This document shows, one piece after another, positions 3,684 through 38,585 of a stretch of 39,258 bases of DNA. Source of the DNA: a virus; the IMG/VR virus record IMGVR_UViG_3300032007_000195; one strand, written 5' to 3'. Position 1 is the first letter of the stretch. Every line of letters starts with the position of its first letter. The notes below the pieces were generated by a model, which was not told the DNA's origin, ran no database searches, and was given only the letters and a program-made list of their open reading frames with translations. The position numbers and the translations under genes are program-made.

Positions 3684-3689
3684 AGTCTC

Positions 3690-8602: not shown

Positions 8603-9165
8603 ATGTTTAAAATATCATACATACTTCGTGTAATATGCTTGCCTACCGCTGTAGGCTCCGATAAAAAACCTAATGAAAAAGTAATTAAATGGTGTATTCA
8701 TGCACTCTGCGTTTCTGCGGGCTTGTGACCGCCATTTGGCCGCATTACATCCGCCACTATGGTATTGTCCACGGTGGCGGTATATATAATCCTACATACC
8801 CGCCCTTCGCCCTGTCTCATGGTTTCCCAACTAAGGACTACTTTCGGGTATCATGCTTGGTGTATCAATATGTCAAAGGTCGATTAAGTAGCAGTGAGCA
8901 GGAGAGGCGCCCAATCTCTCTTCATTAACGTAAGGGCTGTACGACATGCTATCTTGGTGGGATGTGCAGGATTCGAACCTGCGGCGACCTCTTATCTGAG
9001 GTTGGATAATCGTATTATCCATTACTATTTACGAGCGTATTTCTACGACGGCTTTCATCCTCTCAGCCAACATCCCGGATGCTGCTCGGAAGTCCAAGTC
9101 TTACCTACTTGTCCGAAGGCTTTCGCCTCTTATCAGTATTTCGCAGCAGTTTAGTTTAGTTTAGT
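8603..9165 (-). ncRNA. Candidate large structured noncoding RNA locus (contains the tRNA-like element)
   Basis: 563 nt with no credible ORF on either strand, bounded by the SSB-like stop and a terminator. Nested helices: 9080-9085 pairs with 9143-9148 and encloses GAGGC-GAAA-GCCTT and TCGGA(CAAGT-loop-ACTTG)TCCGA. Confidence 0.35.
8955..9076 (-). tRNA. Non-canonical tRNA-like element (122 nt) with acceptor stem, class-II-like D arm, T arm and encoded CCA, but no standard anticodon arm
   Basis: The 5' GGGATGT pairs with the 3' ACATCCC, followed by A-CCA. T arm GCAGG-TTCGAAT-CCTGC. D arm GCT-GAGAGGATGAA-AGC. The interior holds three hairpins: CGTA-GAAA-TACG, TGGATAAT-ACG-ATTATCCA and ACCTC-AGATAA-GAGGT. 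Confidence 0.4.
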
Positions 9166-9168
9166 TTA
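9149..9168 (-). repeat. Pentamer tandem repeat (minus strand TAAAC x4) starting at the SSB-like stop codon
   Basis: Plus strand reads gttta x4. TAA recurs every 5 nt, which puts stops in all three frames. Confidence 0.85.
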
Positions 9169-9552
9169 GAAGGGTAAGTCGGACCCGTCGTTATTGGACG
9201 GTGCAGGGGCCTCTGTATTAGGTTGCTCTGCTGGCTTATTAGCAGCCTCTGCTGCTTCTGCCTGCTTTGCCTTCTCCTCTGCATAGTCGGCGATTCTGTA
9301 TGCGTAGAATCTGTTATACCAACGTCCGTTGTACTCGGTAGCATCCACATCGAATTCTATCCTCACCGTCTTGCCTACCAGGGCATCGAACTGTGCAATC
9401 CTGCCAATGTTACCATCGCGGACATCTACCACCATCTTCTTAGGATACATACCTACTGTTTCCAGCAGGAACTGCGCTGCCTTCCAGTGTCCGTTCTGGC
9501 TATCGCCTTCGCGCTCTTCCGTTTTCTTTAATAAAATTCCTACAAAATCCAT
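9166..9552 (-). CDS. DUF3127-type OB-fold protein with an SSB-like acidic C-terminal tip
   Basis: The core ...WKAAQFLLET...YPKKMVVDV...VRIEFDVDATEYNGRWYNRFYAYRI matches my recollection of DUF3127. An Ala/Glu/Pro linker ends in DGSDLPF, similar to the DDDIPF tail of SSB. Confidence 0.6.
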   Translation of the reverse strand: MDFVGILLKKTEEREGDSQNGHWKAAQFLLETVGMYPKKMVVDVRDGNIGRIAQFDALVGKTVRIEFDVDATEYNGRWYNRFYAYRIADYAEEKAKQAEAAEAANKPAEQPNTEAPAPSNNDGSDLPF

Positions 9553-9754: not shown

Positions 9755-10069
9755 TTAGTTTCTTGAACTTTGTCTATATTGGCATTCGCCTGTTGTGAAG
9801 TCCAGCTTGCCTTCCAGGATCATCTGGTTAATACGGTGCTTGGGGAATGCCGGATTTGTCTCTTTGATGGTACCGTCCTTGTCTTTATATCTTACAGAGC
9901 TCTGAGGCAATAGGTGCTTGTGAGTCTTTAGCCACGACTTTGGAATCATCTGGAATACCCTGCACAACTCCTTGGCACTTATCCATTCTTCGTTGTACAT
10001 CAGGTAAGCCTCCCTTGCCGCTTCGTTCACCACCTGCGAGATTTCTTGTTTTAGTTTTTTATCTATCAT
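9755..10069 (-). CDS. First early-operon gene; putative HTH DNA-binding protein (excisionase/Cro-like)
   Basis: 104 aa. EWISAKELCRVFQMIPKSWLKTH resembles AlpA/Xis-type HTH motifs. The gene is divergent from the repressor gene. Confidence 0.45.
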   Translation of the reverse strand: MIDKKLKQEISQVVNEAAREAYLMYNEEWISAKELCRVFQMIPKSWLKTHKHLLPQSSVRYKDKDGTIKETNPAFPKHRINQMILEGKLDFTTGECQYRQSSRN

Positions 10070-14786: not shown

Positions 14787-15995
14787 TTAGGCGTTCGTGG
14801 GCTCGGGTTCAACAACCTCGTACAGGGCGAATGCCTGAGTCACATTGTTGGCACCGTTGATCTTCTTAGACAGGTCGGTCATAGACCAAGCTGTGTTCAG
14901 AGTAACCTGAGTCACATTCTTCTTGGCACCTGTGTAGATGTCTACAACCATACGAACGTCGCCATGCTGCTGCAATGCGAACCATTCGAAGTAGCCGAAG
15001 CCTATATACTTCTTAGCGGTGGGCACGAGCTGATTAGCAGAGTTCAGTGTGGTGTTCAGATAGTGGGTTACGACGTAAGGATAACCAGCGCACTTGCCGT
15101 CCTGTACAACGAAACCTGCTGCTGCACCAGCAACCAGAGGAGTAGACTTCAGCTCAGCCTCTGTCTCGCGGTCCATGACGATTACTACGTCGCCCTCGAA
15201 GAAGCCCTTATCGCTGAACTTAGCAACTGCCTTCAGGATGTTCTTGAAGGAGTCTGCGCCCAGGTTGATGTCGCCAGCCTTTGACAGGTTGCTGAAGGGG
15301 CCTTTGTTGCCATTCCAGTTGGCCTGGGAATAAATCTTCTTTGCCAGATAGATACGCAGAGCCAAGGCGAACTTAGCCTGAACGAATGCCATCAGGTCGA
15401 AGGCTGCGTTGTCGATGGCCATGTTGCTAACTGGAACGGTCAAGCCGACCTTACGCTGTTGCGGAGAGATGCTTCCGAAGTCCAGAACCTGGTCGTTCAG
15501 AGCCTCTACCTCATCAGGCTCTTCCATCTCTACGTCGTTCAGAGATACTGGCCATACCTCGTTACCGGTAACACCAGTCACAATGCGCAAGCTGGCGGGC
15601 AAACCCAAGCCCTCGTGCAAGGTAGGAATCATCTCATGAATACTGAGCTGAATAGCACCTGATGCGGTGATATTGCTGGTTGAGCCAAGAGATGCAGGGA
15701 AAAGGGTAATCTCGCGGTCAGCGTGGCCCTGGCGTACCTGCTTGAAATACTCACGGAGCTGCTCACCCTTGCTTACCTGCTCGCGGTGCTTTGCCAGCTC
15801 CTCGGCGGTCATCTGGTTGGTGATCTCGCGCATGTTCAACTCAGCTTCGCGGCTGAGGTTGTCCCATTCGCGCTTCTCCTCGTCGTTGAAGTCACGCTTC
15901 TCACGAACTGCTACTTCGTTCAACTCGGACAGTCTGTCCTGAATCTCACGGTTGCGAACTTGAAGTTCGTCTTTCGTCTTTTTTGGCATAATCAA
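14787..15995 (-). CDS. Major capsid protein, HK97 fold, with an N-terminal coiled-coil delta domain
   Basis: 402 aa. The charged helical N-terminus (about 100 aa) and the body are typical of HK97-like MCPs. The gene follows portal and protease genes. Confidence 0.85.
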   Translation of the reverse strand: MIMPKKTKDELQVRNREIQDRLSELNEVAVREKRDFNDEEKREWDNLSREAELNMREITNQMTAEELAKHREQVSKGEQLREYFKQVRQGHADREITLFPASLGSTSNITASGAIQLSIHEMIPTLHEGLGLPASLRIVTGVTGNEVWPVSLNDVEMEEPDEVEALNDQVLDFGSISPQQRKVGLTVPVSNMAIDNAAFDLMAFVQAKFALALRIYLAKKIYSQANWNGNKGPFSNLSKAGDINLGADSFKNILKAVAKFSDKGFFEGDVVIVMDRETEAELKSTPLVAGAAAGFVVQDGKCAGYPYVVTHYLNTTLNSANQLVPTAKKYIGFGYFEWFALQQHGDVRMVVDIYTGAKKNVTQVTLNTAWSMTDLSKKINGANNVTQAFALYEVVEPEPTNA

Positions 15996-16014
15996 AAAAA
16001 TTATTAGTTAAACA

Positions 16015-16701
16015 TTAAAACTTGTATTTCATTCTCATGAGCTGGAGCTCGCGGTGGCGTGCGGCCTGTGCTTCCAGCATCTTCTCCTCTTCCTCGCGCT
16101 TGTGTTTTTCGGCATCATCTGCCTCACGTTTGCCTTCCGGCGTCAGCTTGTCCATCTCGCGGGCATTGACACTTGTCTGCTTGTATGCAGGGTCCATGCC
16201 AATGGTAATGGCTGACAAGAACTCGAAGCTCTTGTGTCGGATAATTACCTCATCCTTACCGTCTGCTGCCTTCGTACGCTCTACCTCGTAGTCCTTAGGA
16301 TAGAATTCGAACGAGCAACCCGAGTAATCGCCACGGCGCACCATCTCCAGGCAGCGGTCGCCAATGTCGCACTTGGGGGCCTCAAATTCGAATGTTACAC
16401 CCTGCTCGTCTACTGCCATACGCAATGAGCCTACGCCCTTATTGCATCGAGCCAATGTCAGTTCCCGCTCATGCAGCATGTTCATCTTCACATCTTGCGT
16501 GTTGAGGAATTCCATTGTGACAGCTTCAGGCAGAATCACTTCACGGAATCTCTCACCCCAATCATCGATAACCTCCGACTCAGCATTGAACACGATGGCT
16601 CTGCCGGTGATTGTGCGAGAGTCGCCCTCCTGACTGCCCGACGCTTCTCTAATGGCCAACTTGCAGTCAATGGTTCTGATTTCTCTTTTCTTTGCATCCA
16701 T
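16015..16701 (-). CDS. Prohead maturation protease (HK97/S78-like) with a coiled-coil C-terminus
   Basis: 228 aa. ...GRAIVFNAESEVI...ERFREVILPEAV...MLHERE...GDYSGCSFEF. The gene lies between portal and MCP. Confidence 0.75.
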   Translation of the reverse strand: MDAKKREIRTIDCKLAIREASGSQEGDSRTITGRAIVFNAESEVIDDWGERFREVILPEAVTMEFLNTQDVKMNMLHERELTLARCNKGVGSLRMAVDEQGVTFEFEAPKCDIGDRCLEMVRRGDYSGCSFEFYPKDYEVERTKAADGKDEVIIRHKSFEFLSAITIGMDPAYKQTSVNAREMDKLTPEGKREADDAEKHKREEEEKMLEAQAARHRELQLMRMKYKF

Positions 16702-16731
16702 ATCTCTCTTTTGAATTGGTTCTGTAAATCG

Positions 16732-18045
16732 TTATTTCTTAGGTTCTGGGTTTACCGTTGTAGGTCTGCCGCCAGAGTTTGACTCTTTTAATTTGGGGCT
16801 ACCTACCACACCAAGATTCATGCTCACATAGTGGTCGTCTCCGTCCTTGATATTGGGCAGATCGTACTGGCTGCGAATCTCGTTCACACTCCAACCGCTC
16901 TCCAAGTGCAGCTTGTCTATCTCTGCCTGGCCCTTCGCGTCGAGACGCTTCAATGCGAGCTCACAGACATGGATTCTCCTCTTTCCGAAATCCAATGGGG
17001 CAAGGAGCTTGCTGTTCAACTCGTCTTCATGTTCACGGATGCGGGGTTGAATAGTTCGCAGCAAGAATTCCTGCGTGGCATGCTCCGGCATTCGGTAATT
17101 GCCGCCACCGTCGCCAACAATGGCTATAATCTTGGGAACTCCCATCAGTCTGCATATTGCCTCGTCGCTATATCCTCTCTGTTCCAGGAGCTGGAGCTGC
17201 TGGGCAGTCTGGCTGATGATCTTCGCATCAGCCACATTGTCGAGGATAGCCACATCGTTGTTAATCCAGTCCTGCGCGAACTTATTACCAGCGTCTCTTA
17301 GTTCCTGTTGGTCGACACGGCCGCGAGTGCCAAATGTGGGGCTCTTCTGTTCTTGAACGAGAATCTTATGCTTACCGCCTTTTGCCATATCCTGGAGAGC
17401 CTGTTCGTCGCCAGTTGCAGCTATGGTTAAAGTCTTAAAGGCGTAGTCGATGGTTGGAATACCTTTGTACATTCCGTCATCCATGAACACATTTTTGAAA
17501 TGCAGAACATCCTCTGGTTGCGCAATCATATTGAAGCGAGGGCCATAGTTGGTATTGTACACCAAGTTGTAGGTATTATTCAGCTCGTTGTATCCGCCAC
17601 CTGTACACAGCCACAGGTTCTTAGGGTAGCCGTCGGCACCACGTTCGATGTACACATAGGCATTGCCGTAGTATATCTTATGCCACTCGATCTGTTCCTG
17701 CATCTGGCTTGCCGTCATGATAGGATTAGGGCGCACCTGCAACATGTAGTTCAGGATGCCGTTCTTGCCGTACCTGTCCTCAATGAAGTTGCCACCCTCT
17801 CCGTTCATTCGCTGATATTGCACAACCATCTGCCCCATCGTTTGCATGATCAGAGTCACACAGCGTGTCCAAGTTGGGATGAGAAGAGAGCTGCGACCAT
17901 AAGGCTTCACGATGTTGGCATCATAGTCGCCACCCTTCGGTGCGTGGTTGCTGGGGTCGTTGGGGTCCGTTGTCTTGGGAACTCCAGGCACAGTAACCTC
18001 TCGCTTGCCAAAGGCATGAACAATATTTGCAAAGAAATTATCCAT
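16732..18045 (-). CDS. Portal protein (HK97-family-like)
   Basis: 437 aa. Size and position are typical, upstream of protease and MCP. Confidence 0.8.
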   Translation of the reverse strand: MDNFFANIVHAFGKREVTVPGVPKTTDPNDPSNHAPKGGDYDANIVKPYGRSSLLIPTWTRCVTLIMQTMGQMVVQYQRMNGEGGNFIEDRYGKNGILNYMLQVRPNPIMTASQMQEQIEWHKIYYGNAYVYIERGADGYPKNLWLCTGGGYNELNNTYNLVYNTNYGPRFNMIAQPEDVLHFKNVFMDDGMYKGIPTIDYAFKTLTIAATGDEQALQDMAKGGKHKILVQEQKSPTFGTRGRVDQQELRDAGNKFAQDWINNDVAILDNVADAKIISQTAQQLQLLEQRGYSDEAICRLMGVPKIIAIVGDGGGNYRMPEHATQEFLLRTIQPRIREHEDELNSKLLAPLDFGKRRIHVCELALKRLDAKGQAEIDKLHLESGWSVNEIRSQYDLPNIKDGDDHYVSMNLGVVGSPKLKESNSGGRPTTVNPEPKK

Positions 18046-18087: not shown

Positions 18088-19518
18088 TTACCGCTCACTG
18101 GTAATGGTTACCGGAACCTGTTCGGCATCGGGGAACTGCCAGTCTATCCATGCACTGATAATGCGCTCTCCCAGCTCCCCGCCGATGCGGTATTGGTATT
18201 CCGGAGTCCACACGGGGTCTTCGCCGACGTGGTACTTCTTAGGGTCTGCTGCGATGCGTCCTTCAATGTCCTTGCCAACTTTCTTTACCTGACGCTTCAG
18301 TAAGTCGGATATGAGCTTCATCATCTCGCGGAACTTGTCACTTGGCATCACGAACATGGAGTAAGGGTGCAGCGTGTGACTTTCGAGGGCCTGATGCCAT
18401 GCCTTGCTGAATTCCTTGTGGTGGGTATCGATGATGTCTGTCAGAATGTCGAGGTCTTCCACATTGCTGAAGCTGTCGTATTGGTCGCGCATTGTCATGT
18501 CGCCAAGCTGTAGGTTCTGACTGACCATTACCTTGCCGTCCAACTCTGGCACATTATCCATCCAGTGGAAATATTTACGCCAACCGCAGAAGCCTATTGT
18601 CTTGTGGAGAGTCTTCTTTGCTGCGATGCGTTGGTAGGTTAGAATCTCTGAGTAGAATAGTCCCTTCAATCCGTCTGGTGCCATATCGCCATCAGTCTTT
18701 CGAGCATCCACTATCTCGTACACCTTATTGTGTACAGGGCAGTCGAAGTCCTTGTGTGCACAGATATAGATTTTAGCATCCTTATTCTCGGGTGTATACC
18801 ACAAGTCCTTCCGCTCTTCCAACCAAGCCTTCTGATTTTCCACGTCGTCCTTGCGCCATGAGCCACCGACATAGTGGTCGAAGTAGCTGAAGAGGTCTGG
18901 GTATAGCTTGGCATGGAGCGCAGGCTTTGTCTTGATGATGTCATCCAGGAGGCAGGCACCTGCGTCCCAATAATTATGTTCGGTGTCGTTGATGTCGGGG
19001 TATAGATTCCAGCATCGCTCGGGATCGAAGTAGCGAGCTCCGTTGGCCACCAACAATGGAACATTCATATAACAGAGGAACGGGTAAAGCCGGTCATGTT
19101 CCTGGCGACGACCTCTGAACCATTCGCCGCGACCAGTTGCGGCGTATTTCTCATCCCAGAGGAAGTCTATGTTCTTGCGAATCAAGACATCACTTTCCAT
19201 CAGGATGAAACCTTCGGGTATCAACTCCCACAACTTCTGTACGGTCAGGATGTGCTTGAAGCTGCCGTCGTTGCTGGCGATTCCCAACTGTATGTTGCGG
19301 TTGGGGTACTTAGCCAGCTCCGCCTCGAAGTCTATAATCTTGCCTTTGGTGTTGTCGATAACACGCACGCCATCCATCTTCACCTTGAATGGCCGCTTGG
19401 TGCTATTATCGAACACTACAATATCGTAGTTCACCTTCGTATGCTTGCGCAAGCTCTTGATTCCCGCCTCTGTCAGTTCGGGCGTGTTAAAATGCACGAT
19501 TGCTACCGTTTTCTTCAT
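18088..19518 (-). CDS. Two-domain glycosyltransferase fusion: N-terminal GT2-like (GT-A) plus C-terminal DUF4422-like
   Basis: N-terminus VAIVHFNTPELTEAGIKSLRKH...DIVVFDNS is the GT2 signature. The C-terminal half KIYICAHKDFD...LFYSEILTYQRI...GFCGWRKYF resembles DUF4422. Confidence 0.6.
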   Translation of the reverse strand: MKKTVAIVHFNTPELTEAGIKSLRKHTKVNYDIVVFDNSTKRPFKVKMDGVRVIDNTKGKIIDFEAELAKYPNRNIQLGIASNDGSFKHILTVQKLWELIPEGFILMESDVLIRKNIDFLWDEKYAATGRGEWFRGRRQEHDRLYPFLCYMNVPLLVANGARYFDPERCWNLYPDINDTEHNYWDAGACLLDDIIKTKPALHAKLYPDLFSYFDHYVGGSWRKDDVENQKAWLEERKDLWYTPENKDAKIYICAHKDFDCPVHNKVYEIVDARKTDGDMAPDGLKGLFYSEILTYQRIAAKKTLHKTIGFCGWRKYFHWMDNVPELDGKVMVSQNLQLGDMTMRDQYDSFSNVEDLDILTDIIDTHHKEFSKAWHQALESHTLHPYSMFVMPSDKFREMMKLISDLLKRQVKKVGKDIEGRIAADPKKYHVGEDPVWTPEYQYRIGGELGERIISAWIDWQFPDAEQVPVTITSER

Positions 19519-20174: not shown

Positions 20175-20199
20175 AAAAAAGGGGAGGCGGCGACCTCCC
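20175..20199 (-). terminator. Intrinsic terminator ending the fibre/DGR transcription unit
   Basis: Minus strand reads GGGAGG-TCGCCG-CCTCCC, then C TTTTTT. Confidence 0.6.
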
Positions 20200-20342: not shown

Positions 20343-20606
20343 TTATACACCATCTTCGAACGAAGGTTTAGTGTCTTCTTTTGGCTCAATGGCTTCGAGG
20401 CGGGCGATTTCTGTCTGTGCAGCGTTGATGTCGTCGCGCCATTGCTGACGATCTGCTATCTTGTCGGCATACTCCTCCTTGGTGGCTGCACCCTCTGCTA
20501 TCTTGGCAGCGATATAGTCGGTACTTGATAGCCTTGCCTCTCTGTCGAGGATAATTGTCTGCTGAGCATTGATGAGCTCAATGATTTCTGACTTTTTCAT
20601 TTCCAT
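20343..20606 (-). CDS. Hypothetical coiled-coil protein (87 aa), weakly like a tail-fibre-assembly protein
   Basis: The start overlaps the RT stop (ATGGAAATGA). ...STDYIAAKIAEG...EYADKIADRQQWRDDIN resembles tail fibre assembly / XkdW-type motifs. The similarity is weak. Confidence 0.5.
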   Translation of the reverse strand: MEMKKSEIIELINAQQTIILDREARLSSTDYIAAKIAEGAATKEEYADKIADRQQWRDDINAAQTEIARLEAIEPKEDTKPSFEDGV

Positions 20607-21832
20607 TTCAGTTTTAATTTGTACTTCTTGTTTAATCTCTGGCGAAGTCCGTACTGAGGTTTACTGACTATACACTGACGGCGTTGGTCCCAATCCAACC
20701 ACTGCCACCACTCCTCGCCGATGGTGGCTTTCAGTTGCATAATGCGCTTGTAGGATGTGCGGTTCTTCAGTAGTCCTGTGTATGAGTTGACGGTTGAAAT
20801 AAAACGGTCGAGCTCTCTGTATTTCTCGACCTCGGCAAGTTGGTTGTATTCGTGTATTCTGGCGATACATCGAGACCATGTGGCATCATTCAATATAATG
20901 CTCCACGGGTGTATATGACTGCCCAGAAATTCAAGGCCCTTCCAATGTTGCTGACAATAAAATTTCCTATCGTTCATCTTTACGCCCTTTGCAGCCAGTC
21001 TCCTGCGCAGTTCGGGCAGTAGACTGAGGGCGTAGGCTTTCAGTTGGTCTGATACCACCATTGTCCCGTCATCCATAAATACCGTGGTGCGGATTCCACA
21101 CTCGTTATTCAGCCACGCCACCTCGTCGTTGATATACAATCCCATTCCTGTCTGTGATGTCATGCGGCCGATAGGCACTCCTATGCCGTCTGGCTTATTC
21201 AAGATTGATTTCTCCGGCTTTATATGCCGCTCCCATAGGTATTTCGGTGTGCGTCTTTCGTAATGCTTTGCAGGACAGCAATGGATAGTGACCATTGACA
21301 ACCACTTTAGAAACGACGGCATCCACTCGCCGTACTGCGCGGCTATTTCGTCCTGATAATTGTCAATAACGCGGTCGAATTCATACTCCATGTAGGTGCA
21401 GTCAGCATTCGGAAAGAATCCCGCTAAGTCCCACTTGATTATCCATGCCGTCTGCGTGTAACCTTGCGAAACCTCGAATATATCTTCTATCACCTGATTT
21501 ATTGCCGCTTGCGAGCCCATACCTTCGCGGTTGTTGAATGTACGAGGGTGCAGTGTCCGCTCGATATACGGCTTCAATGTGTCGCATAATAAATGGTCGG
21601 CTAACCGACCAGCGAACTCTGTTGCGAATATCTCGCGCCATTTAGGTATGGAAGTAAGGAAGGTGTAGTTGTGGAGTATGCGGAATGTTCTTTCCGTGAG
21701 CTCGTACATCATACGAACAAGCAGCGGTGGCCAATTTACTTCAAAGGCCATTGAGTCGCGCCCGTAACGCTTGTTTCTCCTGGTGGAGAACATCAGGTCG
21801 AGCAACATCGAAAAGAACGATACATCAGTCAT
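20597..21832 (-). CDS. DGR reverse transcriptase
   Basis: IKWDLAGFFPN (motif with catalytic D), GVPIGRMTSQ (the DGR hallmark IGxxxSQ) and VFMDDGTMV (YxDD box). The gene lies directly 3' of the TR. I placed the start at MTDVSFF (21832), because the track's extension overlaps the TR. Confidence 0.88.
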   Translation of the reverse strand: MTDVSFFSMLLDLMFSTRRNKRYGRDSMAFEVNWPPLLVRMMYELTERTFRILHNYTFLTSIPKWREIFATEFAGRLADHLLCDTLKPYIERTLHPRTFNNREGMGSQAAINQVIEDIFEVSQGYTQTAWIIKWDLAGFFPNADCTYMEYEFDRVIDNYQDEIAAQYGEWMPSFLKWLSMVTIHCCPAKHYERRTPKYLWERHIKPEKSILNKPDGIGVPIGRMTSQTGMGLYINDEVAWLNNECGIRTTVFMDDGTMVVSDQLKAYALSLLPELRRRLAAKGVKMNDRKFYCQQHWKGLEFLGSHIHPWSIILNDATWSRCIARIHEYNQLAEVEKYRELDRFISTVNSYTGLLKNRTSYKRIMQLKATIGEEWWQWLDWDQRRQCIVSKPQYGLRQRLNKKYKLKLKWK

Positions 21833-21863
21833 AGATAAAAGCGCAATACAGCGAATACAGGTA

Positions 21864-21988
21864 AAATCGCGACCGCCTGACAACGATTCGCGTTATTGAC
21901 GTTGTTGTTGTTGAGTTTGCCGTTGTTGCCGTTGAAGATCCAAGCGTTGTTGACGTTGTACCTCTGGGCAAACCACCGGTTCGTACTG
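21864..21988 (-). repeat. DGR template repeat (TR)
   Basis: About 125 nt, homologous to 22565-22688 and 37874-37998. On the minus strand it is rich in AAC codons (...AACAACAACAACGTCAATAAC...). All differences from both VRs are at TR adenines. Confidence 0.9.
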
Positions 21989-22067
21989 GTCGGAGCCGCA
22001 TCTTGTGCTGCTATACATGATAGCCGGACTCCCTTTTACCCTATTCATATCTGACAGCCACCTCTTG

Positions 22068-22484
22068 TCATTGCTGACCGACCTGCGGCTGCTCCTGACG
22101 TTTAAGCGACCGTGCCACATTTCTCCACTTCCTGACACCTTCCTCTATTCTTTCTAACTGCATAGCGATACTCAGTTTATCCTTATCTGTCAGGAGCCCT
22201 TGTACAATACAAAGCTCGAAGTTTGCCAACAATATACCGAACTCACCAAACATTTCGCGGATGCGCTCCTGTCGTACTTCCTGGCACTCCTTGGCGATGG
22301 CAAAGTGGCGTATGATGTTCTGCACCGCCCGCTTCATCTCTACCGGCGCACCTTCGATACGATCTATCTTTGGCATCCGCTGAATGGCTGGGTGCAGGAT
22401 ATAAAGCAGGTTCTTTGCGTCGGCCAGAATCGAGTCTTTGTCGTTGTGCGCCTTATGCCCGCGTGGTTTCTTGTGTTCGTTCAT
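22068..22484 (-). CDS. avd: DGR accessory variability determinant (Avd-like four-helix-bundle protein)
   Basis: 138 aa, basic and helical. ...RMPKIDRIEGAPVEMKRAVQNIIRHFAIA resembles the fPK.eRy.L motif of Avd / 23S-IVS proteins. The gene sits between the target and the TR. Confidence 0.7.
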   Translation of the reverse strand: MNEHKKPRGHKAHNDKDSILADAKNLLYILHPAIQRMPKIDRIEGAPVEMKRAVQNIIRHFAIAKECQEVRQERIREMFGEFGILLANFELCIVQGLLTDKDKLSIAMQLERIEEGVRKWRNVARSLKRQEQPQVGQQ

Positions 22485-22506
22485 TATTTACTTGAAGTAC
22501 AAGGGC

Positions 22507-22535
22507 CTCACGTCACGCTTTTGCGATGACGTGAG
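22507..22535 (-). promoter_or_regulatory. Hairpin/cruciform about 30 nt 3' of VR1 (DGR target-recognition element)
   Basis: Minus strand reads CTCACGTCA-T-CGC-AAAA-GCG-TGACGTGAG: a 9-bp stem, a 1-nt bulge, a 3-bp stem and a tetraloop. Confidence 0.6.
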
Positions 22536-22550
22536 AGCCTATATTAAGAG

Positions 22551-23870
22551 TTAATCAATTTTCAAAAGCGCGACCGCCTGACAACGAAGCGCGTAATAGA
22601 CGTAGCTGGCGTAGAGTTTGCCGTTGAGGCCGTTGAAGAACCAAGCGTTGTAGACGTTGTACCTCTGGGCAAACCACCGGTACGTACTATTGTTAATTGC
22701 GGTAGTTCCCATCTTGGTGACTGATGGCGCGAGAGTGTCGATGCAATCGTCTTTCATCAGCTCAGTGCCCTCCAATACGCCTGGCAAATGGAAATCGCCC
22801 GCATTCAGTCCCACAACACCATACGAGCGGTTGTAGCCGTAGTTTAGTGCAGGGAATTTGGCCTTTGTGCCGCCGTCCTTGGTCGGAGCCGTCTTGTTTG
22901 CATACAGCCTACCAAGCTCTGCACCGTCTGGCAGCGAGAAGCAGCCATACTTCTGCGGACATACGACCATGTAGCACTTCTCCAGATACTCCTCGTAGGT
23001 CTTGTAGGCGGAGCGAAGGTCGGCACAATACTCTGATGTCTCGAATGCAGACGGACGCACTGGTTCGCTGTTACCGGCCTGCGGTCCTACTGGCTCGTTG
23101 GCTGACGGCACACGAGCGTTATTGGTTGCCCACGCTTTTGTGCGATCAATGTTCATCACGCCCCAATAGTTAGTGTAGAAGCCACGCTCTCCGCGCCAGT
23201 AGGCAGAGTTCTCTGGCATGGTGCCCCAAGTGATGTGCGCGATGGTACATCCAGTCGCGCTGACGTTGTAGAAACGATAGTCTACGCAGGTGTCACACTG
23301 AATGATGATTTGCGTGCCGCCACTTTCCACCTTGTTGCCCTCGGCATCTGCCAGGTAAGCCCACCATGCCTTAGTATCTCCAACCTCTGCTGCCTTTGCT
23401 TCCACGGCAGCGGAAATCTCGGCAGCACTCGTCGCGTCGATGGTGGCAGATGTCAGCGTCACGTCCACGGTGGTGTCAACGGAATAGTCTGGACTCATGC
23501 GCAGTTTAATAGCCAGCGTGGCGCTACTGATGGCAGTGATGGCATACTGGCATACGTCGAGATATTTCAGGTCGGCTGTGTTCTTGTCAATCACGCCCAC
23601 CTGACGACCTTTACGCAGATAGACGTATCCAACATGCACCCATGCGCTGGGGATGATAGCTTTTTGAATCCATGAGCCGCCCTTAACGTAGGCGACTTCG
23701 TTAGACTCGTTCAGGAACACCAGGTCGCCAACTGCGGGGCTTGTCGTGATGACGTTAACACCGTCAACTATAATCTCGCGTGTAGTCTCTATCAGGGATA
23801 CCTGACTCTCTATGGTTGGCTTAACTGCTGCATCGTATGCAGTCTTGTTAGCATAAGATTTTATTGCCAT
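22551..23870 (-). CDS. DGR target protein 1: tail-fibre-module protein with a C-terminal lectin-like (DUF1566/CLec-type) variable domain
   Basis: 439 aa. The C-terminus ...STYRWFAQRYNVYNAWFFNGLNGKLYASYVYYALRCQAVALLKID is encoded by VR1. The gene follows the tail fibre gene. Confidence 0.85.
   Translation of the reverse strand: MAIKSYANKTAYDAAVKPTIESQVSLIETTREIIVDGVNVITTSPAVGDLVFLNESNEVAYVKGGSWIQKAIIPSAWVHVGYVYLRKGRQVGVIDKNTADLKYLDVCQYAITAISSATLAIKLRMSPDYSVDTTVDVTLTSATIDATSAAEISAAVEAKAAEVGDTKAWWAYLADAEGNKVESGGTQIIIQCDTCVDYRFYNVSATGCTIAHITWGTMPENSAYWRGERGFYTNYWGVMNIDRTKAWATNNARVPSANEPVGPQAGNSEPVRPSAFETSEYCADLRSAYKTYEEYLEKCYMVVCPQKYGCFSLPDGAELGRLYANKTAPTKDGGTKAKFPALNYGYNRSYGVVGLNAGDFHLPGVLEGTELMKDDCIDTLAPSVTKMGTTAINNSTYRWFAQRYNVYNAWFFNGLNGKLYASYVYYALRCQAVALLKID
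22565..22688 (-). repeat. DGR variable repeat 1 (VR1)
   Basis: Hand alignment to the TR at an offset of 701 nt shows about 15 mismatches, all at TR plus-strand T (coding-strand A). Confidence 0.88.
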
Positions 23871-23890: not shown

Positions 23891-25729
23891 TTAGTTAATC
23901 AAAACCCAATCGCTCACGGAATTTGTCACGCTGAATGCGGTGTATTCCTTCTTATTGGTGGTGTCGAGATACTTCTGGCCGATGAATGCCGGCACGTTAG
24001 GTGCTGATGGTGCACCGGCACCGTAAACAATCATCGGGTAGTTCTGCACTTTGGGTATGTCTTCCGAATTAATGCAGACGGCGCGAGTCTCGCCCAGATT
24101 GTCCAACTGCGCCTTCAGGCCCTCTATCTCACCGAGGAGCTGTGCGAAGGCCTGAGCGATAACGGCCTGACCAGGAGCACCGATGAAGTTGGTGGCAATA
24201 TTCTTGAAGATACCAAGGCCAACCACCAGAGCTACACCGCCACTCACCGTAGCCGTGTAACCGCTGACCACAACGGTCATGGCCGTTGGACAGAGATAGA
24301 CGTAATAGCCGGTGCTTGGCATTGCGGCCACAGCCTGCTTCATTAGAGGCTCGTAGTAGCTCTCTGTCACATCGCGTGTGGCAGGCAGTGTGGCGTAGGT
24401 CTGACCACCCATTACCCAACCTGTGAGGACAGGAGTATCGCCGCTCTCATCGTACTGAGCAGTGTAGATCAGCGCGGGGTTGTAGTCGGCAGTAGCCGTT
24501 GCGGGCAGCTCTGGGTAGTCCTGGCGATAGGTGTAGGCGTAGGTGATCACCTTGTCGTAAGTCCTTGTAACGATGCGGGCAAAGAGGCTCACGTCGGCAG
24601 GAACTGCGCTCGCACTCGGCACTAACAGGATGTCGCCTGCGTTCAGGTTTACCTCCTCGCTGATACCGTAGCCGCTCGCGCTGACCTCCTGACCGTTCAC
24701 GTTGACATACTTTCCCGCCGTTGCCTGCTGAAGGGTGATGCTGCGCGTATTGTTGTACTTGCCAAGGCCCTGTTCCAAGAATTGCACCCTGCCATTCGTG
24801 GCGGAGAACTTTTCGTCCACCTCTGTCTTGTTGTAGTAGCTCGCAAGAGCGGCGGTGATGTCTGCCTGAATAGCTGCCTCCATCTGAGAGGTGGTGCTGT
24901 AATCGCTGAGAGCGGAGCTGATGGCTGTTGCAATCAGTTCTACCAATCCCTGAGAGGTGGGCAGCGCGTCCAACTTAGCCTTAAGAGCCGTGGTGAAGTC
25001 CTCGGTAGAGAGCTGCTTGCCCGTTACCTTGTTTACCTTCTCGCTGAGCATCTGATTGATGGCCGTGGCGTTGTAGTAATTGGTAAGGGCAGCGGTGATG
25101 GCATTCTGGATGGCGATGGCGGTGGCATCCGTGGTGCTATAAGGGGCGAGTGCGGTGGTGATAGCCGACTGCACCTGCGAACTGGTAACAAAGCCTGCCA
25201 CTGCTGCGGTAATTAGTGCCTGAACCTGACTTTGGTTTAATTTTGTACCCAATGCTTCATTGAGAGCAAGGTCAGCAGTCTCGCGTGCCAGACGCTCTGC
25301 GGCGATGTCGGCAGCCATACCTGCCGAAGCATTAATAGCAGCCTGCACGCTCGCGTTGAGGTCGGCAAGTGGAATGCCGGTACCTGGCTTCTGGTATGCC
25401 GTGCCAGCGGCATCCAAAAGGTTCTGTACTGCCGTGGCAAGGTCAGTCTTGGGTATTCCGGTACCTGGCTTCTGGTATGCCGTGCCAGCGGCATCCAAAA
25501 GGTTCTGTACTGCCGTGGCAAGGTCAGTCTTGGGTATTCCGGTACCTGGCTTCTGGTATGCCGTCAAAGCCTTCTCAATGGCTGATTGCAAAGCCGATGT
25601 GAGGTCGGAATCAGGAATACCACCATCTGGTTTAGTGTACTTCAGCAGCACCTCCGCTGCCAAATCGGGCACTTGGTTCAAGATATTCTGAACCTCTGCG
25701 CCAGTCTGTGTTAGTCTATAATCTGCCAT
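23891..25729 (-). CDS. Tail fibre protein
   Basis: 612 aa. Ala/Thr/Gln-rich repeats (YQKPGTGIPKTDLATAVQNLLDAAGTA, VTGKQLSTEDFTTALKAKLDAL) and a C-terminal GAGAPS...FIGQKYLDTTNKKEY motif are typical of phage fibres. Confidence 0.75.
   Translation of the reverse strand: MADYRLTQTGAEVQNILNQVPDLAAEVLLKYTKPDGGIPDSDLTSALQSAIEKALTAYQKPGTGIPKTDLATAVQNLLDAAGTAYQKPGTGIPKTDLATAVQNLLDAAGTAYQKPGTGIPLADLNASVQAAINASAGMAADIAAERLARETADLALNEALGTKLNQSQVQALITAAVAGFVTSSQVQSAITTALAPYSTTDATAIAIQNAITAALTNYYNATAINQMLSEKVNKVTGKQLSTEDFTTALKAKLDALPTSQGLVELIATAISSALSDYSTTSQMEAAIQADITAALASYYNKTEVDEKFSATNGRVQFLEQGLGKYNNTRSITLQQATAGKYVNVNGQEVSASGYGISEEVNLNAGDILLVPSASAVPADVSLFARIVTRTYDKVITYAYTYRQDYPELPATATADYNPALIYTAQYDESGDTPVLTGWVMGGQTYATLPATRDVTESYYEPLMKQAVAAMPSTGYYVYLCPTAMTVVVSGYTATVSGGVALVVGLGIFKNIATNFIGAPGQAVIAQAFAQLLGEIEGLKAQLDNLGETRAVCINSEDIPKVQNYPMIVYGAGAPSAPNVPAFIGQKYLDTTNKKEYTAFSVTNSVSDWVLIN
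25377..25564 (-). repeat. In-frame 81-bp tandem repeat (2 perfect units plus 26 nt) inside the tail fibre gene
   Basis: Units 25377-25457 and 25458-25538 are identical base for base. Each encodes the 27-aa unit YQKPGTGIPKTDLATAVQNLLDAAGTA. Confidence 0.95.
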
Positions 25730-26269: not shown

Positions 26270-26593
26270 CTATTCAATCGTTCTTGGGGTTAGTTTCATA
26301 TATCGCTTGATGAGGAAGTCGAAGCCGTATTCTACTGTATGTAATTGCTGCACACTTATTGCTGAGCGATTGTTGTAGCTTGCTTCTACAAGTAGGAGTG
26401 ATGCTTCAATTATTGCAGCAGGCACAGGCTTGTCCGTCGTCCCGAATTTCTCTACAATCTCCTCATACGTTCGGTTGGTGATGTTCAGAACCATCTCCTC
26501 TGCCGCTTCGCCGTAGAGTTCAAGTATAGCGTCCTCGCAGTCATAGTCGATGCGGGAGTGCTGCTTAATGTAGTCTATTGTTAGCCATCTCAT
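26270..26593 (-). CDS. Head-tail connector, gp6-like (paralogue 2)
   Basis: LTIDYIKQHSRIDYDCEDAILELYGEAAEE... shows the same N-terminal pattern as the 924-1220 product. Confidence 0.55.
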   Translation of the reverse strand: MRWLTIDYIKQHSRIDYDCEDAILELYGEAAEEMVLNITNRTYEEIVEKFGTTDKPVPAAIIEASLLLVEASYNNRSAISVQQLHTVEYGFDFLIKRYMKLTPRTIE

Positions 26594-36233: not shown

Positions 36234-36665
36234 TTATGGTTTTAGTTTAACATATAACTTCATAGCTCCGTAGATTGCGGCAATGCCTAATATTGCCATC
36301 ATGATGTTGCCCAGGTTGAGCCGTAGTTTCTGCCACCAGGTGAGGGGTTTATCTATATACTCGGGTACAGGGTAAGGCTTCGGGATGGTGTCTGTCTTGC
36401 TGATATAGGTTGTATCATGCACCAGCTTCTCCTTGTACTTCGTATGCCATTTCTCCACAAGGACGGTATCGCCATTATCGTGTATATACGTCGAGTCGTG
36501 CAGCCATACCGAATCCTTCTGTAGCTTTGTCTGTATCAGCGTGTCGGTGTGGTATTCCGGCACCGTAACATACTTCGTGGTCGTGCAGCCGGTGAGCAAC
36601 CAGACAAGGATAGTTGCATAAGCTACCAGATAAAATACAATATTCTTACTATTCATATTCTTCAC
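36234..36665 (-). CDS. Unimolecular spanin candidate (N-terminal lipoprotein signal plus C-terminal transmembrane anchor)
   Basis: Lipobox LLTGC after a hydrophobic signal (IVFYLVAYATILVW). The C-terminal transmembrane segment is NIMMAILGIAAIYGAMKLYV. The architecture matches phage T1 gp11. Confidence 0.55.
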   Translation of the reverse strand: MKNMNSKNIVFYLVAYATILVWLLTGCTTTKYVTVPEYHTDTLIQTKLQKDSVWLHDSTYIHDNGDTVLVEKWHTKYKEKLVHDTTYISKTDTIPKPYPVPEYIDKPLTWWQKLRLNLGNIMMAILGIAAIYGAMKLYVKLKP

Positions 36666-36687
36666 TCTTCATTCTTCATTCTTCATT
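36657..36687 (-). repeat. 31-nt element, copy B; exact copy of 4939-4969
   Basis: The 31-mers are identical. This copy ends at the ATG of the u-spanin gene and contains the stop of the 36676-36822 ORF. Confidence 0.9.
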
Positions 36688-37218: not shown

Positions 37219-37743
37219 TTAGCCCTGCGCAGTACTCTCTAACTTGATTCGCTCTTCGAGAACTTCCACATACTCAATCATCAGGCTGTACTGACTTTCC
37301 ATGAGCACCTTCTTGCGGTCTGGCAGACCTTTGAAGATGGGTGTTGAGAAGAACATGTTGAGCTTCTCGATCTTGTCTTTCAACTCCTCGCACTCGTTTA
37401 CCATTCGGCCAACGTATGAGTCTGCGCCCTGAGTTAGTCGCCAATCGTCGGCCATGATGTCCTCCCATGTTGGGATGTAATACGTGGCGCGAGCTGGTGT
37501 CTTTTCGTCGTCCTTGAACTCGATGATTAGTACCTGGTGGTGGTACTCAATCTCGCCAGAGCCGACGGTGCTAATCTTTGGCTTCACGATGTCCTGTACT
37601 GAGGTCATCTTCGGCACGATGTCCTTAGCGATACGCTGAGGAATCTGCATCATGATTTCCTTATCTCCGTTTACGTCCCATGCCATGCGCTGGGCAGTGC
37701 CTCCATTCTTTAGGCACTCAATGACTTCTGCAAATTTTGCCAT
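37219..37743 (-). CDS. DUF2829 (Tad2-like) domain protein with a C-terminal helical extension
   Basis: FAEVIECLKNGGTAQRMAWDVNGDKEIMMQIP ... ATYYIPTWEDIMADDWRL matches the DUF2829 pattern (f.eAl.alk.Gk...R..W......i.lq ... w.ps..Dl.a.DW.i). This is a by-eye call. Confidence 0.55.
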   Translation of the reverse strand: MAKFAEVIECLKNGGTAQRMAWDVNGDKEIMMQIPQRIAKDIVPKMTSVQDIVKPKISTVGSGEIEYHHQVLIIEFKDDEKTPARATYYIPTWEDIMADDWRLTQGADSYVGRMVNECEELKDKIEKLNMFFSTPIFKGLPDRKKVLMESQYSLMIEYVEVLEERIKLESTAQG

Positions 37744-37799: not shown

Positions 37800-37830
37800 G
37801 CAGCGGGTAGCTTCGCAGCATACCCGCTGC
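37800..37830 (-). promoter_or_regulatory. Hairpin/cruciform about 43 nt 3' of VR2, with the same architecture as the VR1 hairpin
   Basis: Minus strand reads GCAGCGGGTA-T-GCT-GCGA-AGC-TACCCGCTGC: a 10-bp stem, a 1-nt bulge, a 3-bp stem and a tetraloop. Confidence 0.6.
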
Positions 37831-37859: not shown

Positions 37860-38513
37860 TTATTCGGGATTCCAAAGCGCGACCGCCTGACAACGATACG
37901 CGCTATTGACGTAGTAGTAGTAGAGCCTGCCGCTGTAGCCGCTGAAGAGCCAAGCGCTGCCGACGCTGTACCTCTGGGCAAACCACCGGTACGCACTGAA
38001 ATCAATTTTCTTAGCACCGGCAAGGCTAAGTGCCATGTTTAGGTTTTTCCTATGGCAATACATAGCCAAGAATACAGGGATGGTAGGCAGATAGTGGCCT
38101 TCCTTCAGCTCGAATGCGAGACCAAGTTGCTTTAGGTACTCTGTCTCACCCTTGAAGTCCCAATTTAGCAGGGCGTCCACCTCGTTGAGGCAATGCTCAT
38201 CCTCGGGGTATTCATCCTCCTTCAGAAGGCGTTGTTCGCCGTAGTCATGATCGAGTGGCACACCGAATGTATGACCATCGTATGCTATGCCTATCATAGC
38301 CACGTCATCCATAAGGTTCTCCCCGTCAAATTCCTCGTAACTGCCATCCTTGTGTACAACGTACACACCATTCTCGATTGGCATAACACCAACAATGGTT
38401 GTCTTGATACCATCCTGAGGCTTCAAATTCCTGCGTGCAAAGTCCAAAGCCTCTTGCGCCTTGCTTCCGAATCTCTCGTAAACGGAAAGCAACTCTTCCA
38501 TATTCATTTCCAT
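37860..38513 (-). CDS. DGR target protein 2: small stand-alone lectin-like (DUF1566/CLec-type) protein
   Basis: 217 aa. ...GHYLPTIPVFLAMYCHRKNLN...FSAYRWFAQRYSVGSAWLFSGYSGRLYYYYVNSAYRCQAVALWNPE. The last roughly 40 aa are encoded by VR2. Confidence 0.85.
   Translation of the reverse strand: MEMNMEELLSVYERFGSKAQEALDFARRNLKPQDGIKTTIVGVMPIENGVYVVHKDGSYEEFDGENLMDDVAMIGIAYDGHTFGVPLDHDYGEQRLLKEDEYPEDEHCLNEVDALLNWDFKGETEYLKQLGLAFELKEGHYLPTIPVFLAMYCHRKNLNMALSLAGAKKIDFSAYRWFAQRYSVGSAWLFSGYSGRLYYYYVNSAYRCQAVALWNPE
37874..37998 (-). repeat. DGR variable repeat 2 (VR2), remote from the TR
   Basis: Hand alignment to the TR at an offset of 16010 nt shows about 19 mismatches, all at TR plus-strand T (coding-strand A). 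Confidence 0.88.
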
Positions 38514-38554
38514 ATTTACTTTTGTTTAATTCTACAATTCTCAAATTCTTGATA

Positions 38555-38585
38555 AAGATAAGAGAGCCGACATACATCAGCCCTG
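38555..38585 (-). terminator. Terminator-like hairpin after the 38590-38991 gene (sequence relative of the 881-910 hairpin)
   Basis: Minus strand reads AGGGCTGAT-GTAT-GTCGGCTCT followed by C TTATCTTTAT. The T-run is weaker. Confidence 0.45.

Follow-up and report, generated by a model that had tools for sequence, protein, structure and literature searches.

The 39,258-nt window (the whole stretch of DNA that was analysed) is a circular phage genome of 39 kb that almost certainly carries a complete diversity-generating retroelement (DGR) of a temperate phage of ruminant-gut Bacteroidales, in which two genes are diversified by one element. Judged from its sequence, the DGR is apparently working and rewrites the tips of two phage proteins, and the DGR reading is supported on all testable elements, least firmly on the Avd-like gene. 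The element is a clean example of a well-known system and represents no new kind. Non-adjacent second targets within one prophage and short DUF1566-like targets have both already been described. The features of the element are as follows:

22551..23870, minus strand: target gene 1, 439 aa, adjoining the cassette
22568..22688, minus strand: variable region VR1, codons ~395-435 of target 1
22505..22538, minus strand: GC-rich hairpin, ~30 nt downstream of VR1
22068..22484, minus strand: Avd-like accessory gene, 138 aa
21868..21987, minus strand: core of the template repeat (TR), non-coding, with 38 adenines
20597..21832, minus strand: reverse transcriptase (RT) gene, 411 aa
21775..21790, minus strand: small RNA hairpin in the 5' end of the RT gene, 6 bp with a 4-nt loop
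37860..38513, minus strand: target gene 2, 217 aa (215 if started at the second Met)
37878..37997, minus strand: variable region VR2, at the C-terminal end of target 2
37800..37830, minus strand: GC-rich hairpin, ~47 nt downstream of VR2

On the minus strand, target 1 (23870 to 22551) is followed by the Avd-like gene (22484 to 22068), the TR (21987 to 21868), and the RT gene (21832 to 20597). This is the target-avd-TR-RT order of the prototype DGR of Bordetella phage BPP-1 (mtd-avd-TR-brt), as had been claimed in an earlier note on this DNA. The span of 20597-23870 given there for the whole element is too short, as it leaves out the second target gene at 37860-38513, which is part of the system. 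The cassette had also been described as fused to the tail-fibre module. This holds in the sense that target 1 comes directly after a 612-aa ORF matching PHROG tail proteins, and in no further sense. Head-completion and portal genes are next.

DGRs are characterised by a pair of repeats, TR and VR, that differ almost only at TR adenines. A repeat search returned a single family, with three copies of 125 nt (21863-21987, 22564-22688, and 37873-37997), in which the second and third copies are 88% and 84% identical to the first. All three repeats of about 125 nt reported earlier thus exist, with coordinates that were off by one base. Mismatches were tabulated base by base on the minus (coding) strand. 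Over 125 nt, there are 15 differences between VR1 and the TR, every one at a TR adenine, and 20 between VR2 and the TR, of which 19 are at TR adenines and one is a T>G at 21863, a position beyond the end of homology. The hypergeometric chance that 15 or 19 mismatches would all fall on the 39 adenines among 125 bases is 3e-9 and 5e-12, respectively. At position 21867, the TR has A, both VRs of this genome and nearly all related VRs have C, and one related VR (L011) has T; this position is a fixed end of homology and not a site of mutagenesis. Consequently, the mutagenised core was defined as the 120 nt at 21868-21987, with 38 adenines and 82 non-A positions, leaving out columns 21867 and 21863. 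Within this core, the differences from the TR lie at adenines in 14/14 cases for VR1 and 18/18 for VR2, with none at the 82 non-A positions. The computational alignment proposed in the earlier note, tabulated by TR base, is therefore adenine-only in the core (32/32), while the counts of about 15 and 19 given there are reduced by one each, the extra mismatch being the fixed homology boundary. Between the two VRs there are 22 differences, 21 in TR-A columns, in line with the strong divergence claimed before.

The homology limits of VR2 are the same as those of VR1, and in each ORF the VR is C-terminal, with 4-5 codons left between it and the stop codon. The TR and both VRs share a GC-rich end, GGCGGTCGCG; the next base is C in the two VRs and A in the TR. 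Among the relatives, this base is A in every TR and C in the VR of all but one. A GC-rich 3' end of the IMH type, in which the VR is unlike the TR, and a hairpin or cruciform downstream of the VR are known features of DGRs. The BPP-1 element is alike in that its VR forms the last ~40 codons of the target, with adenine-specific substitutions and a TR designed around AAC codons, and in that a GC-rich hairpin with a 4-nt loop comes after a GC-rich end of homology.

The same mismatch table effectively refutes the reading of the repeats as ordinary paralogous copies of a C-terminal domain, shaped by normal mutation and selection, beside an RT from an unrelated system (retron, group II intron, or abortive-infection). 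This reading deserves next to no credence, as ordinary divergence would not confine 32/32 substitutions to one base, nor 358/377 in relatives, and the middle copy is non-coding. The latter count comes from 19 related TR/VR pairs, in which 358 mismatches occur at A and 19 elsewhere, most of these 19 in columns at the two ends of the 125-nt alignment.

The TR of a DGR acts as an invariant non-coding donor, with information passing from TR to VR. Here the non-coding TR occupies part of the gap that separates the avd stop (22068) from the RT start (21832). Its codons in the VR frame include 12 AAC, 2 AAT, and 1 AAA, a count that bears out its reported richness in AAC (Asn). Because TR adenines occupy the first two positions of 14 AAY codons, homing would re-randomise ~14-18 residues without stop codons, and the AAY codons alone would allow about 15^14 = 3e16 peptides. 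A 15-nt block just upstream of the TR (21988-22002) is conserved in relatives, and no hairpin like those after the VRs is found downstream of the TR.

RTs of the DGR clade are recognised by motif 4, [I/L/V]GxxxSQ, together with a catalytic xxDD. Both motifs previously read in this RT, IGxxxSQ (GVPIGRMTSQ) and FMDD, are present, the former as IGRMTSQ at residues 221-227 (PIGRMTSQ) and the latter at residues 252-255. The protein matches the profiles Pfam RVT_1 (E = 1e-9) and phrog_1423 (E = 1.5e-30). Its only match in the PDB is 8ub7 (E = 8e-12, aligned from residue 7, with PIGxxTSQ aligned), the brt product of BPP-1, which is thus the sole relative with a solved structure. On its motifs and this sole PDB match, the RT is classed as DGR type. 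RVT_1 is a generic RT domain, and there is a weak NCBIfam match to the group II intron RT/maturase family (TIGR04416 group_II_RT_mat, 30.9 bits), which the paralog reading could invoke. However, this score is tenfold below the cut-off of 300 bits, and no group II intron or retron RT in the PDB, the classes named in advance as a possible refutation, reaches E<=10 against the RT, compared with 8e-12 for BPP-1 bRT. RTs of these classes come with an associated RNA, and neither intron RNA domains nor msr/msd repeats were noticed here on inspection. On these NCBIfam and PDB comparisons, an assignment to the group II intron, retron, or defence type was rejected. The relationship to BPP-1 is nevertheless very distant; in a tblastn search, BPP-1 gave no match at 1e-5 or better. 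The closest RTs from phages that have been cultured or deposited belong to phages F1/F2/F4 of Bacteroides uniformis (PMC8143477) and to further phages of gut Bacteroidales, hankyphage (PMC6199706) among them. These are likewise tailed Bacteroidales phages with a DGR, although their RT identity to the present RT is only 25-27%.

The RT start at ATG 21832 is conserved in all relatives, and in one of them (L048) the Met downstream of it is replaced by Ile. Counted to this ATG, the TR-to-RT distance is 35 nt. The earlier estimate of about 30 nt therefore stands for this start and not for TTG 21883, which opens the longest ORF. BPP-1, in contrast, has a 144-nt non-coding spacer at this point, so any spacer-RNA function here must overlap the RT coding region. 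The hairpin at 21775..21790 falls in the part of the element that in BPP-1 forms the non-coding spacer RNA. In a fold alignment of 13 relatives, 3/6 of its pairs are kept through double changes, some of which alter the amino acid (TCC..GGA to GAC..GTC), and the hairpin may have a function at the RNA level.

DGR cassettes encode an accessory protein, either Avd or an HRDC-domain protein. The 138-aa product of the gene preceding the TR matches phrog_3206, "Avd protein of DGR", over residues 6-136 (E = 1.1e-5), and the position and size of the gene fit an accessory role. Its match to NCBIfam NF033474 DivGenRetAVD lies at E = 0.046, with 14 bits against a cut-off of 80. That profile is matched by 6/9 members of the Avd-like family, with a best E of 3.3e-5, also under the curated cut-off. 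No Pfam match was obtained, and hhalign against BPP-1 Avd gave a probability of 3%, which is not significant. The earlier Avd-like label thus keeps its full-length PHROG match and falls short on the NCBIfam and BPP-1 comparisons, leaving the Avd assignment weak at this level.

The hairpin after VR1 consists of 9 bp, a 1-nt bulge, 3 bp, and a 4-nt loop, with 2 outer pairs, and its DNA fold has an energy of -18.5 kcal/mol (z = -5.5). Its 14 pairs are 100% paired in 21 distinct relatives, with compensatory double changes at 5 pairs, while slid controls are 24-62% paired. The terminator scan did not call it, because no T-run follows. The VR2 hairpin has the same architecture and a different sequence (10 bp, a 1-nt bulge, 3 bp, and the loop GCGA). 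By eye, GC-rich inverted repeats after the VR are also present at other T2-type loci (L026, L029, and L031). Homing in BPP-1 requires GC stems of 7-10 bp with 4-nt loops (PMC3240598), and the VR1 hairpin fits this requirement with its GC stem and 4-nt loop. On the model of BPP-1, the hairpins would guide homing; they could instead be RNA stability or termination elements. Their loops, AAAA and GCGA, depart from the GRNA consensus of BPP-1-like elements (PMC3240598). The VR2 hairpin starts ~47 nt past the homology end, outside the 4-34 bp range found for phage DGRs (PMC3240598).

This spacing, together with the ~16 kb separating target 2 from the cassette, would suit a situation in which only VR1 works as a target and VR2 is a leftover copy that no longer accepts cDNA, the distance to its hairpin being one possible cause. 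Such a situation is very improbable. VR2 carries 18 A-site differences and no non-A difference, and it differs from VR1 at 21 TR-A columns; it must therefore have received its own mutagenised cDNA from the present TR, or from a TR identical at non-A sites. Furthermore, its GC-rich end and hairpin architecture are those of VR1, T2 homologues are hypervariable exactly at the VR codons, and the T2-type VR of a relative with just 62% RT identity agrees with the TR of that relative at every non-A site.

The relatives also bear on whether the element has remained active. Among 18 related contigs, 145 of the 148 non-A substitutions that are specific to a lineage's TR also appear in the cognate VR, and repeated TR-to-VR transfer must consequently have taken place after the lineages diverged. 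As read from these alignments, this shows that homing continued after the lineage split. On a second two-target contig (L051 + L031), a single TR matches VRs of both the T1 and the T2 type; the mismatches number 17 and 16, respectively, and every one is at an A. In the relatives, hypervariability is confined to VR codons. As a proxy for VR heterogeneity within a population, by which current homing would be recognised, clusters of T1 relatives that are >90% identical were compared, and their VR codons show 5-8 residue types, versus mostly 2 (max 5) at variable columns elsewhere. Ongoing diversification is thereby supported indirectly, through the relatives.

The departure of both hairpin loops from the consensus, given that loop sequence matters in BPP-1 (PMC3240598), and the presence of FMDD in place of the more usual YxDD could be taken as signs of a real DGR that is now a fossil, its RT or RNA no longer working and its VRs frozen since past homing. 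This is improbable, as FMDD retains both catalytic aspartates, and the RT, avd, and both target ORFs are intact. A fossil would gather non-A differences, yet none separates the TR from either VR over 82 positions each, and relatives with RTs 80-94% identical keep the TR/VR agreement at non-A sites (145/148). The lineage data, in which TR changes are copied to the VRs and the target-side hairpin is kept by compensation, are unusually clean evidence of continued homing.

In the proposed mechanism, which follows the BPP-1 model, the avd-TR-RT region would be transcribed, and the RT and the Avd-like protein would copy the TR RNA into cDNA. Copying would be faithful at G, C, and U, with random bases inserted opposite adenines. 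The cDNA would then take the place of the 120-nt homologous segment at the 3' end of one or the other target, the choice of target being set by the shared GC-rich homology end (GGCGGTCGCG, then C in VRs and A in the TR) and the GC-rich hairpin downstream of each VR.

Compared with BPP-1, the present element has two targets instead of one, a target domain of the DUF1566/Lcl_C type instead of the Mtd type, and a host among the Bacteroidales instead of Bordetella. For DGRs carried by phages, "many examples" are on record in which one target is adjacent and another, non-adjacent target belongs to the same prophage (Wu et al. 2018, PMC5758913), and the layout described there, with one target in the cassette and a second within the same ~40-kb phage genome, is exactly that found here. 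By their own account, large metagenome surveys fail to capture non-adjacent targets (PMC8144416), and for this reason the two-target case is a reminder of the gap in such surveys. A search with the genome returned no nucleotide similarity to GenBank phages, and no description of the lineage or of the T2 protein family was found in the literature covered, by a search that was not specific to the T2 family. The element therefore adds a well-resolved, complete two-target DGR from an uncultured temperate phage lineage of ruminant-gut Bacteroidales, of use in rumen virome annotation. Knowledge of how DGRs work is unchanged by it, and only its short second target could open up anything new.

In DGR targets, the VR lies at the 3' end of an ORF and encodes part of a domain with the C-type-lectin fold. 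Target 1, with 567 homologues, has a structure model of low confidence (pLDDT 44), and its residues 218-438 align with target 2 at an hhalign probability of 98.5%. The diversified domains of the two targets are, by this alignment, homologous, and target 2 is essentially the diversified lectin-like domain of target 1 on a short N-terminal helix. The target 2 model (pLDDT 75) gives its best fold matches to 4eps (Bacteroides fimbrial protein), 8q4e (Legionella Lcl C-terminal domain), and C-type lectins, with probabilities of 0.96 and 0.90, but with a Foldseek E of about 0.03 and a TM of 0.25-0.45, which is weak. Consequently, the target domains are predicted to be C-type-lectin-like, that of target 2 by weak fold matches of its model and that of target 1 by alignment to target 2. 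Because it adjoins the tail-protein gene, target 1 is most likely a receptor-binding protein, a probable assignment made solely from gene position, and host-range changes would therefore result from its diversification.

Target 2 has 28 homologues, and its family, which comprises 141 clusters at 50% identity and occupies variable genomic positions, has no Pfam or PHROG match. Distant members touch Pfam Lcl_C at E = 2e-4 to 5e-4. Category "d" (CLec2) targets, of the DUF1566/Lcl_C type to which Legionella LdtA belongs, show a similar VR sequence pattern, and about half of them are short, domain-only proteins (PMC5758913). Target 2 is also short and domain-only, and its model matches 8q4e and 4eps. 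In contrast to that category, neither target reaches any Pfam threshold, and LdtA has a lipoprotein signal whereas target 2 does not. It is unlikely that target 2 is not a virion receptor-binding protein but a DGR-diversified soluble binder with a role within the infected cell or away from the tail, such as anti-defence or host takeover; if it were, phage hypermutation would be used for something other than adsorption. The 217-aa protein is encoded away from the tail module and has no evident signal peptide or, by eye, N-terminal hydrophobic segment. In this genome, Tad2-like and crAss001_48 domains are encoded by an ORF next to it. The T2 gene of one relative is surrounded by small ORFs and adjoins a CI-like repressor region, and that of other relatives immediately follows the large terminase gene.

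The elements considered here are listed below. The minus strand is the coding strand for nearly all genes of the window.

25729 to 23891, minus strand: 612-aa ORF matching PHROG tail-protein families
23870 to 22551, minus strand: target 1, 439 aa, whose last ~40 codons are the variable region VR1
22538 to 22505, minus strand: hairpin after VR1, from DNA folding
22484 to 22068, minus strand: Avd-like ORF, 138 aa, from a PHROG match
21987 to 21868, minus strand: template repeat (TR), from repeat comparison
From ATG 21832, minus strand: reverse transcriptase (RT), 411 aa (MTDVSFF...), next after the TR; start chosen by conservation and alignment with bRT, the RT of Bordetella phage BPP-1
38513 to 37860, minus strand: target 2, 217 aa, ~16 kb from the cassette, with VR2 as its C-terminal end

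The block ends with an ORF of 87 aa and a strong, terminator-like hairpin that is bidirectional (20182-20199).

A repeat search of the window returned one three-copy family of 125 nt, at 21863-21987, 22564-22688 and 37873-37997. The three copies had been described in an earlier note, whose coordinates (21864-21988, 22565-22688 and 37874-37998) are one base off. The copies were compared on the minus strand, with 60 nt added on each side. Homology begins sharply at AGTACG (21987) and stops after GGCGGTCGCG (21868), which defines a core of 120 nt. Both VRs end in this same GC-rich segment followed by C, where the TR has A. This adenine, at 21867, is replaced by C in nearly all related VRs as well, and by T in one (locus L011); the column marks the constant limit of homology and did not arise by mutagenesis. 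Measured against the TR (the middle copy) across all 125 nt, VR1 differs at 15 positions, all of them TR adenines, and VR2 at 20, comprising 19 adenines and one T>G at the outermost base. Tabulation of the core by base upholds the proposal that mismatches occur only at TR adenines: 14 (VR1) and 18 (VR2) differences fall among 38 adenines, and none at the 82 other positions. The hypergeometric probability that the adenine-site mismatches counted over 125 nt (15 and 19) would all fall on its 39 adenines is 3e-9 for VR1 and 5e-12 for VR2. The TR also proved as rich in AAC as had been claimed, with 12 AAC, 2 AAT and 1 AAA codons in the VR frame.

Related loci provide evidence that information is transferred from TR to VR. 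A scan of IMG/VR yielded 25 loci with RTs 51-94% identical to that of the window. In the 19 loci where a TR could be paired with a VR, 358 mismatches lie at adenines and 19 at other bases, these 19 being mostly located in the columns at either end of the 125-nt repeat. The TRs of related lineages have diverged at non-adenine positions too, and 145 of 148 such lineage-specific changes are also present in the cognate VR. This correspondence requires that, once lineages have split, the TR goes on overwriting the VR. Contig 3300031993_000517 (RT 62% and target 2 35% identical) carries both a target 1-type and a target 2-type VR, which differ from their own TR at 17 and 16 positions, respectively, all adenines. 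Both types also occur on a second contig, 3300021387_000703, so the two-target layout is conserved. In the 90%-identity protein clusters of target 1 relatives (up to 190 members), VR codons show 5-8 residue types among 13-14 sequences; variable columns outside the VR mostly show two. About ten contigs from the scan with a VR-end 16-mer (e.g., L030, L033, L034 and L040) were GC-rich, unrelated chance matches and were ignored. As a separate observation, in locus L019 (VR 9065-9189, TR 9772-9896) the VR has G in place of the lone adenine within the GC-rich 3' segment (CAGGCGG). Mutagenesis therefore reaches within 11 nt of the homology end, which bounds the start of cDNA synthesis.

The RT matches Pfam RVT_1 and phrog_1423 ('Reverse transcriptase', E = 1.5e-30). 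Among 177,635 distinct PDB sequences, the only RT matched at E<=10 is 8ub7 (8e-12), the sole other match being a spurious one to a C-type lectin domain (E = 0.33). In a search of a phage collection, the aligned segment of 8ub7 was 100% identical to brt of BPP-1. The motifs IGxxxSQ and FMDD reported earlier are both present and align with those of bRT, GVPIGRMTSQ opposite GIPIGSLTSQ and FMDD opposite YMDD. The score against the NCBIfam group II intron RT/maturase model is 30.9 bits, at a cut-off of 300, and reflects generic RT similarity only. Among deposited phages, the nearest RTs (25-27% identity) belong to the DGR-carrying Bacteroides uniformis phages F2, F4 and Bacuni_F1; no GenBank phage was matched by megablast with 23 kb of the window.

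The 138-aa ORF is called Avd-like, after the accessory protein of BPP-1, on the basis of its position, its size and weak PHROG and NCBIfam matches. It matches phrog_3206 ('Avd protein of DGR') along its whole length (E = 1.1e-5). Against NCBIfam DivGenRetAVD it scores below the cut-off, and six of nine family members match, the best at E = 3.3e-5. Alignment of the family with BPP-1 Avd by hhalign gave no significant result. Judged from its sequence, the cassette is expected to work like the BPP-1 DGR, to which it corresponds in its defining features; for Avd, the correspondence is tentative.

The start of the RT was placed at ATG 21832 for three reasons. An ATG occupies this position in every relative, with a length-variable stretch before it and no indels from it onward; the next downstream Met is Ile in locus L048; and translation from this ATG aligns with bRT from residue 7. 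Conservation and the alignment with the bRT N-terminus favour this start over both TTG 21883, which lies inside the TR and opens the longest RT ORF, and ATG 21751, which were rejected. The resulting gap between TR and RT is 35 nt, whereas BPP-1 has a non-coding spacer of 144 nt between TR and brt. In BPP-1, the spacer RNA supplies the priming site. With a gap of only 35 nt, any equivalent of this RNA would have to overlap the RT coding region. A 6-bp hairpin is found in the 5' end of the RT gene (21790 to 21775, minus strand), where pairing is kept through compensatory changes, some of them non-synonymous, and the adjacent ~20 nt after it, AACAAGCGTTACGGGCG, are nearly invariant at the nucleotide level. 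Tentatively, the hairpin and this segment could correspond to the spacer RNA of BPP-1, in this case overlapping coding sequence.

Each VR is followed by a GC-rich hairpin of common architecture and different sequence, in which a one-base bulge separates 9-10 bp from a further 3 bp and a 4-nt loop; no comparable hairpin follows the TR. When 21 distinct relatives of the VR1 hairpin were aligned, 100% of cells at its 14 pairs were paired, with double compensatory changes at five pairs, whereas slid controls were only 24-62% paired. Target 2-type loci and more distant relatives carry unrelated GC-rich inverted repeats at the same place. Homing in BPP-1 requires GC-rich stems of 7-10 bp with 4-nt loops of consensus GRNA, located 4-34 bp from the VR (PMC3240598). 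By analogy, the VR hairpins would fit this element, with some differences: the stems are longer, the VR2 hairpin lies ~47 nt from its VR, and the loops are AAAA and GCGA in the window, although GAAA, GACA or GGTA occurs in many relatives. The hairpins were rejected as intrinsic terminators, since neither has a T-run and neither was called by a terminator scan. That they act in RNA instead is conceivable.

Target 2 has 28 close homologues, among which variation falls precisely on VR codons. Neither target matches Pfam or NCBIfam. In a profile-profile comparison, residues 47-216 of target 2 align with residues 218-438 of target 1 at 98.5% probability, so that target 2 amounts essentially to the diversified target 1 domain carrying a short N-terminal extension. 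The homologue alignment gave a target 2 model (pLDDT 75) composed of a helix at the N-terminus, a small beta unit and a helix/strand domain. The structures most similar to it are Bacteroides ovatus 4eps, the C-terminal domain of Legionella Lcl (8q4e) and many C-type lectins, with weak match statistics (probability 0.96 and 0.90, E ~0.03). The AlphaFold model of target 1, based on 20 sequences of 76-89% identity, is unusable (pLDDT 44), probably due to too shallow an alignment. A profile search with the non-VR part of target 2 (window 38019-38513) found 141 clusters at 50% identity among 1.84 billion representatives (P0178-P0317), and nearly all of these proteins have 170-340 aa. The family profile matched nothing at E<=10 among PDB sequences, and none of the homologues scanned had a Pfam hit. 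A sub-threshold Lcl_C (formerly DUF1566) match was seen at the extreme C-terminus of 3 of 10 longer members scanned.

Phage DGRs with one adjacent and one non-adjacent target in the same prophage are reported to be common, and short targets made up solely of a DUF1566-type domain have been reported (Wu et al. 2018, PMC5758913). Because this layout and such targets have already been described, the element belongs to a known kind of DGR. Tens of thousands of DGRs were catalogued by Roux et al. 2021 (PMC8144416), who point out that non-adjacent targets escape their method.

The location of target 2 varies among relatives. It directly follows the large terminase in loci L026 and L029 and lies among small ORFs in L066 and L068, those in L066 adjoining a CI-like repressor region. 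In the window, it is flanked by a terminator-like element on one side and by an ORF bearing both Tad2-like and crAss001_48 domains on the other, and it has no evident signal peptide. The likelier reading is that target 2 serves as a second receptor-binding protein, docking to the virion via its N-terminal helix; a binder that is not part of the virion is an improbable alternative. The ORF directly downstream (37219-37743, minus strand, 174 aa) matches Tad2-like (Thoeris anti-defence 2; E = 3e-7) and crAss001_48 (E = 1.6e-17) domains and is a candidate anti-defence gene. The terminator-like element is 31 nt long, with copies at 889-919 and 38554-38584 that are 94% identical; on the minus strand it forms a hairpin with a T-rich run after it, and so resembles a terminator. 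Since the second copy lies just upstream of the target 2 start, this gene may have its own promoter.

An exact 127-nt direct terminal repeat (1-127 = 39132-39258) indicates that the assembly closes into a circular genome of 39,131 bp. It encodes an integrase, SSB, primase, HNH, small and large terminase, portal, protease, major head protein, tail proteins, holin-like proteins and an amidase endolysin, and this gene set identifies a temperate tailed phage. Homologues of target 1 occur in MAGs of Paludibacteraceae, Prevotella, Alloprevotella and other Bacteroidales from sheep, roe deer and other guts, and a distant copy accompanied by avd and RT lies in a 270-kb Bacteroidales contig. Below the level of order, the host assignment is insecure because the closest matches lie on short binned contigs.

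The modules are arranged in an unusual order: following transcription, the small and large terminase genes (1707-4055) lie ~20 kb from portal, protease and major head genes (14787-18045), with lysis and tail genes in between. Misassembly seems unlikely because siblings of similar length exist (39,266 and 39,434 bp; a comparison of length only). Two ORFs resemble head-tail adaptor Ad1 (924-1220 and 26270-26593). An exact 31-nt repeat of heptamer-like units (AATGAAGAATGAAGAATGAAGAGTGAAGAAT on the minus strand) occurs at two gene junctions, 4939-4969 and 36657-36687, one copy preceding the HNH/small/large terminase block and the other the lipoprotein/holin-like/endolysin block. The repeat spans stop and start codons in differing frames and is hence not coding; late operons may share it as a regulatory site. 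A 476-aa ORF (18088-19518, minus strand) matches the glycosyltransferase-like DUF4422 (E = 5.5e-10) and lies between the portal gene, directly upstream of it, and a head-completion gene, an unusual location for such a gene. Finally, three tandem 81-nt repeats (25371-25613; 98% and 63% identity) within the gene for the 612-aa tail protein encode 27-aa repeats (AYQKPGTGIPKTDLATAVQNLLDAAGT).
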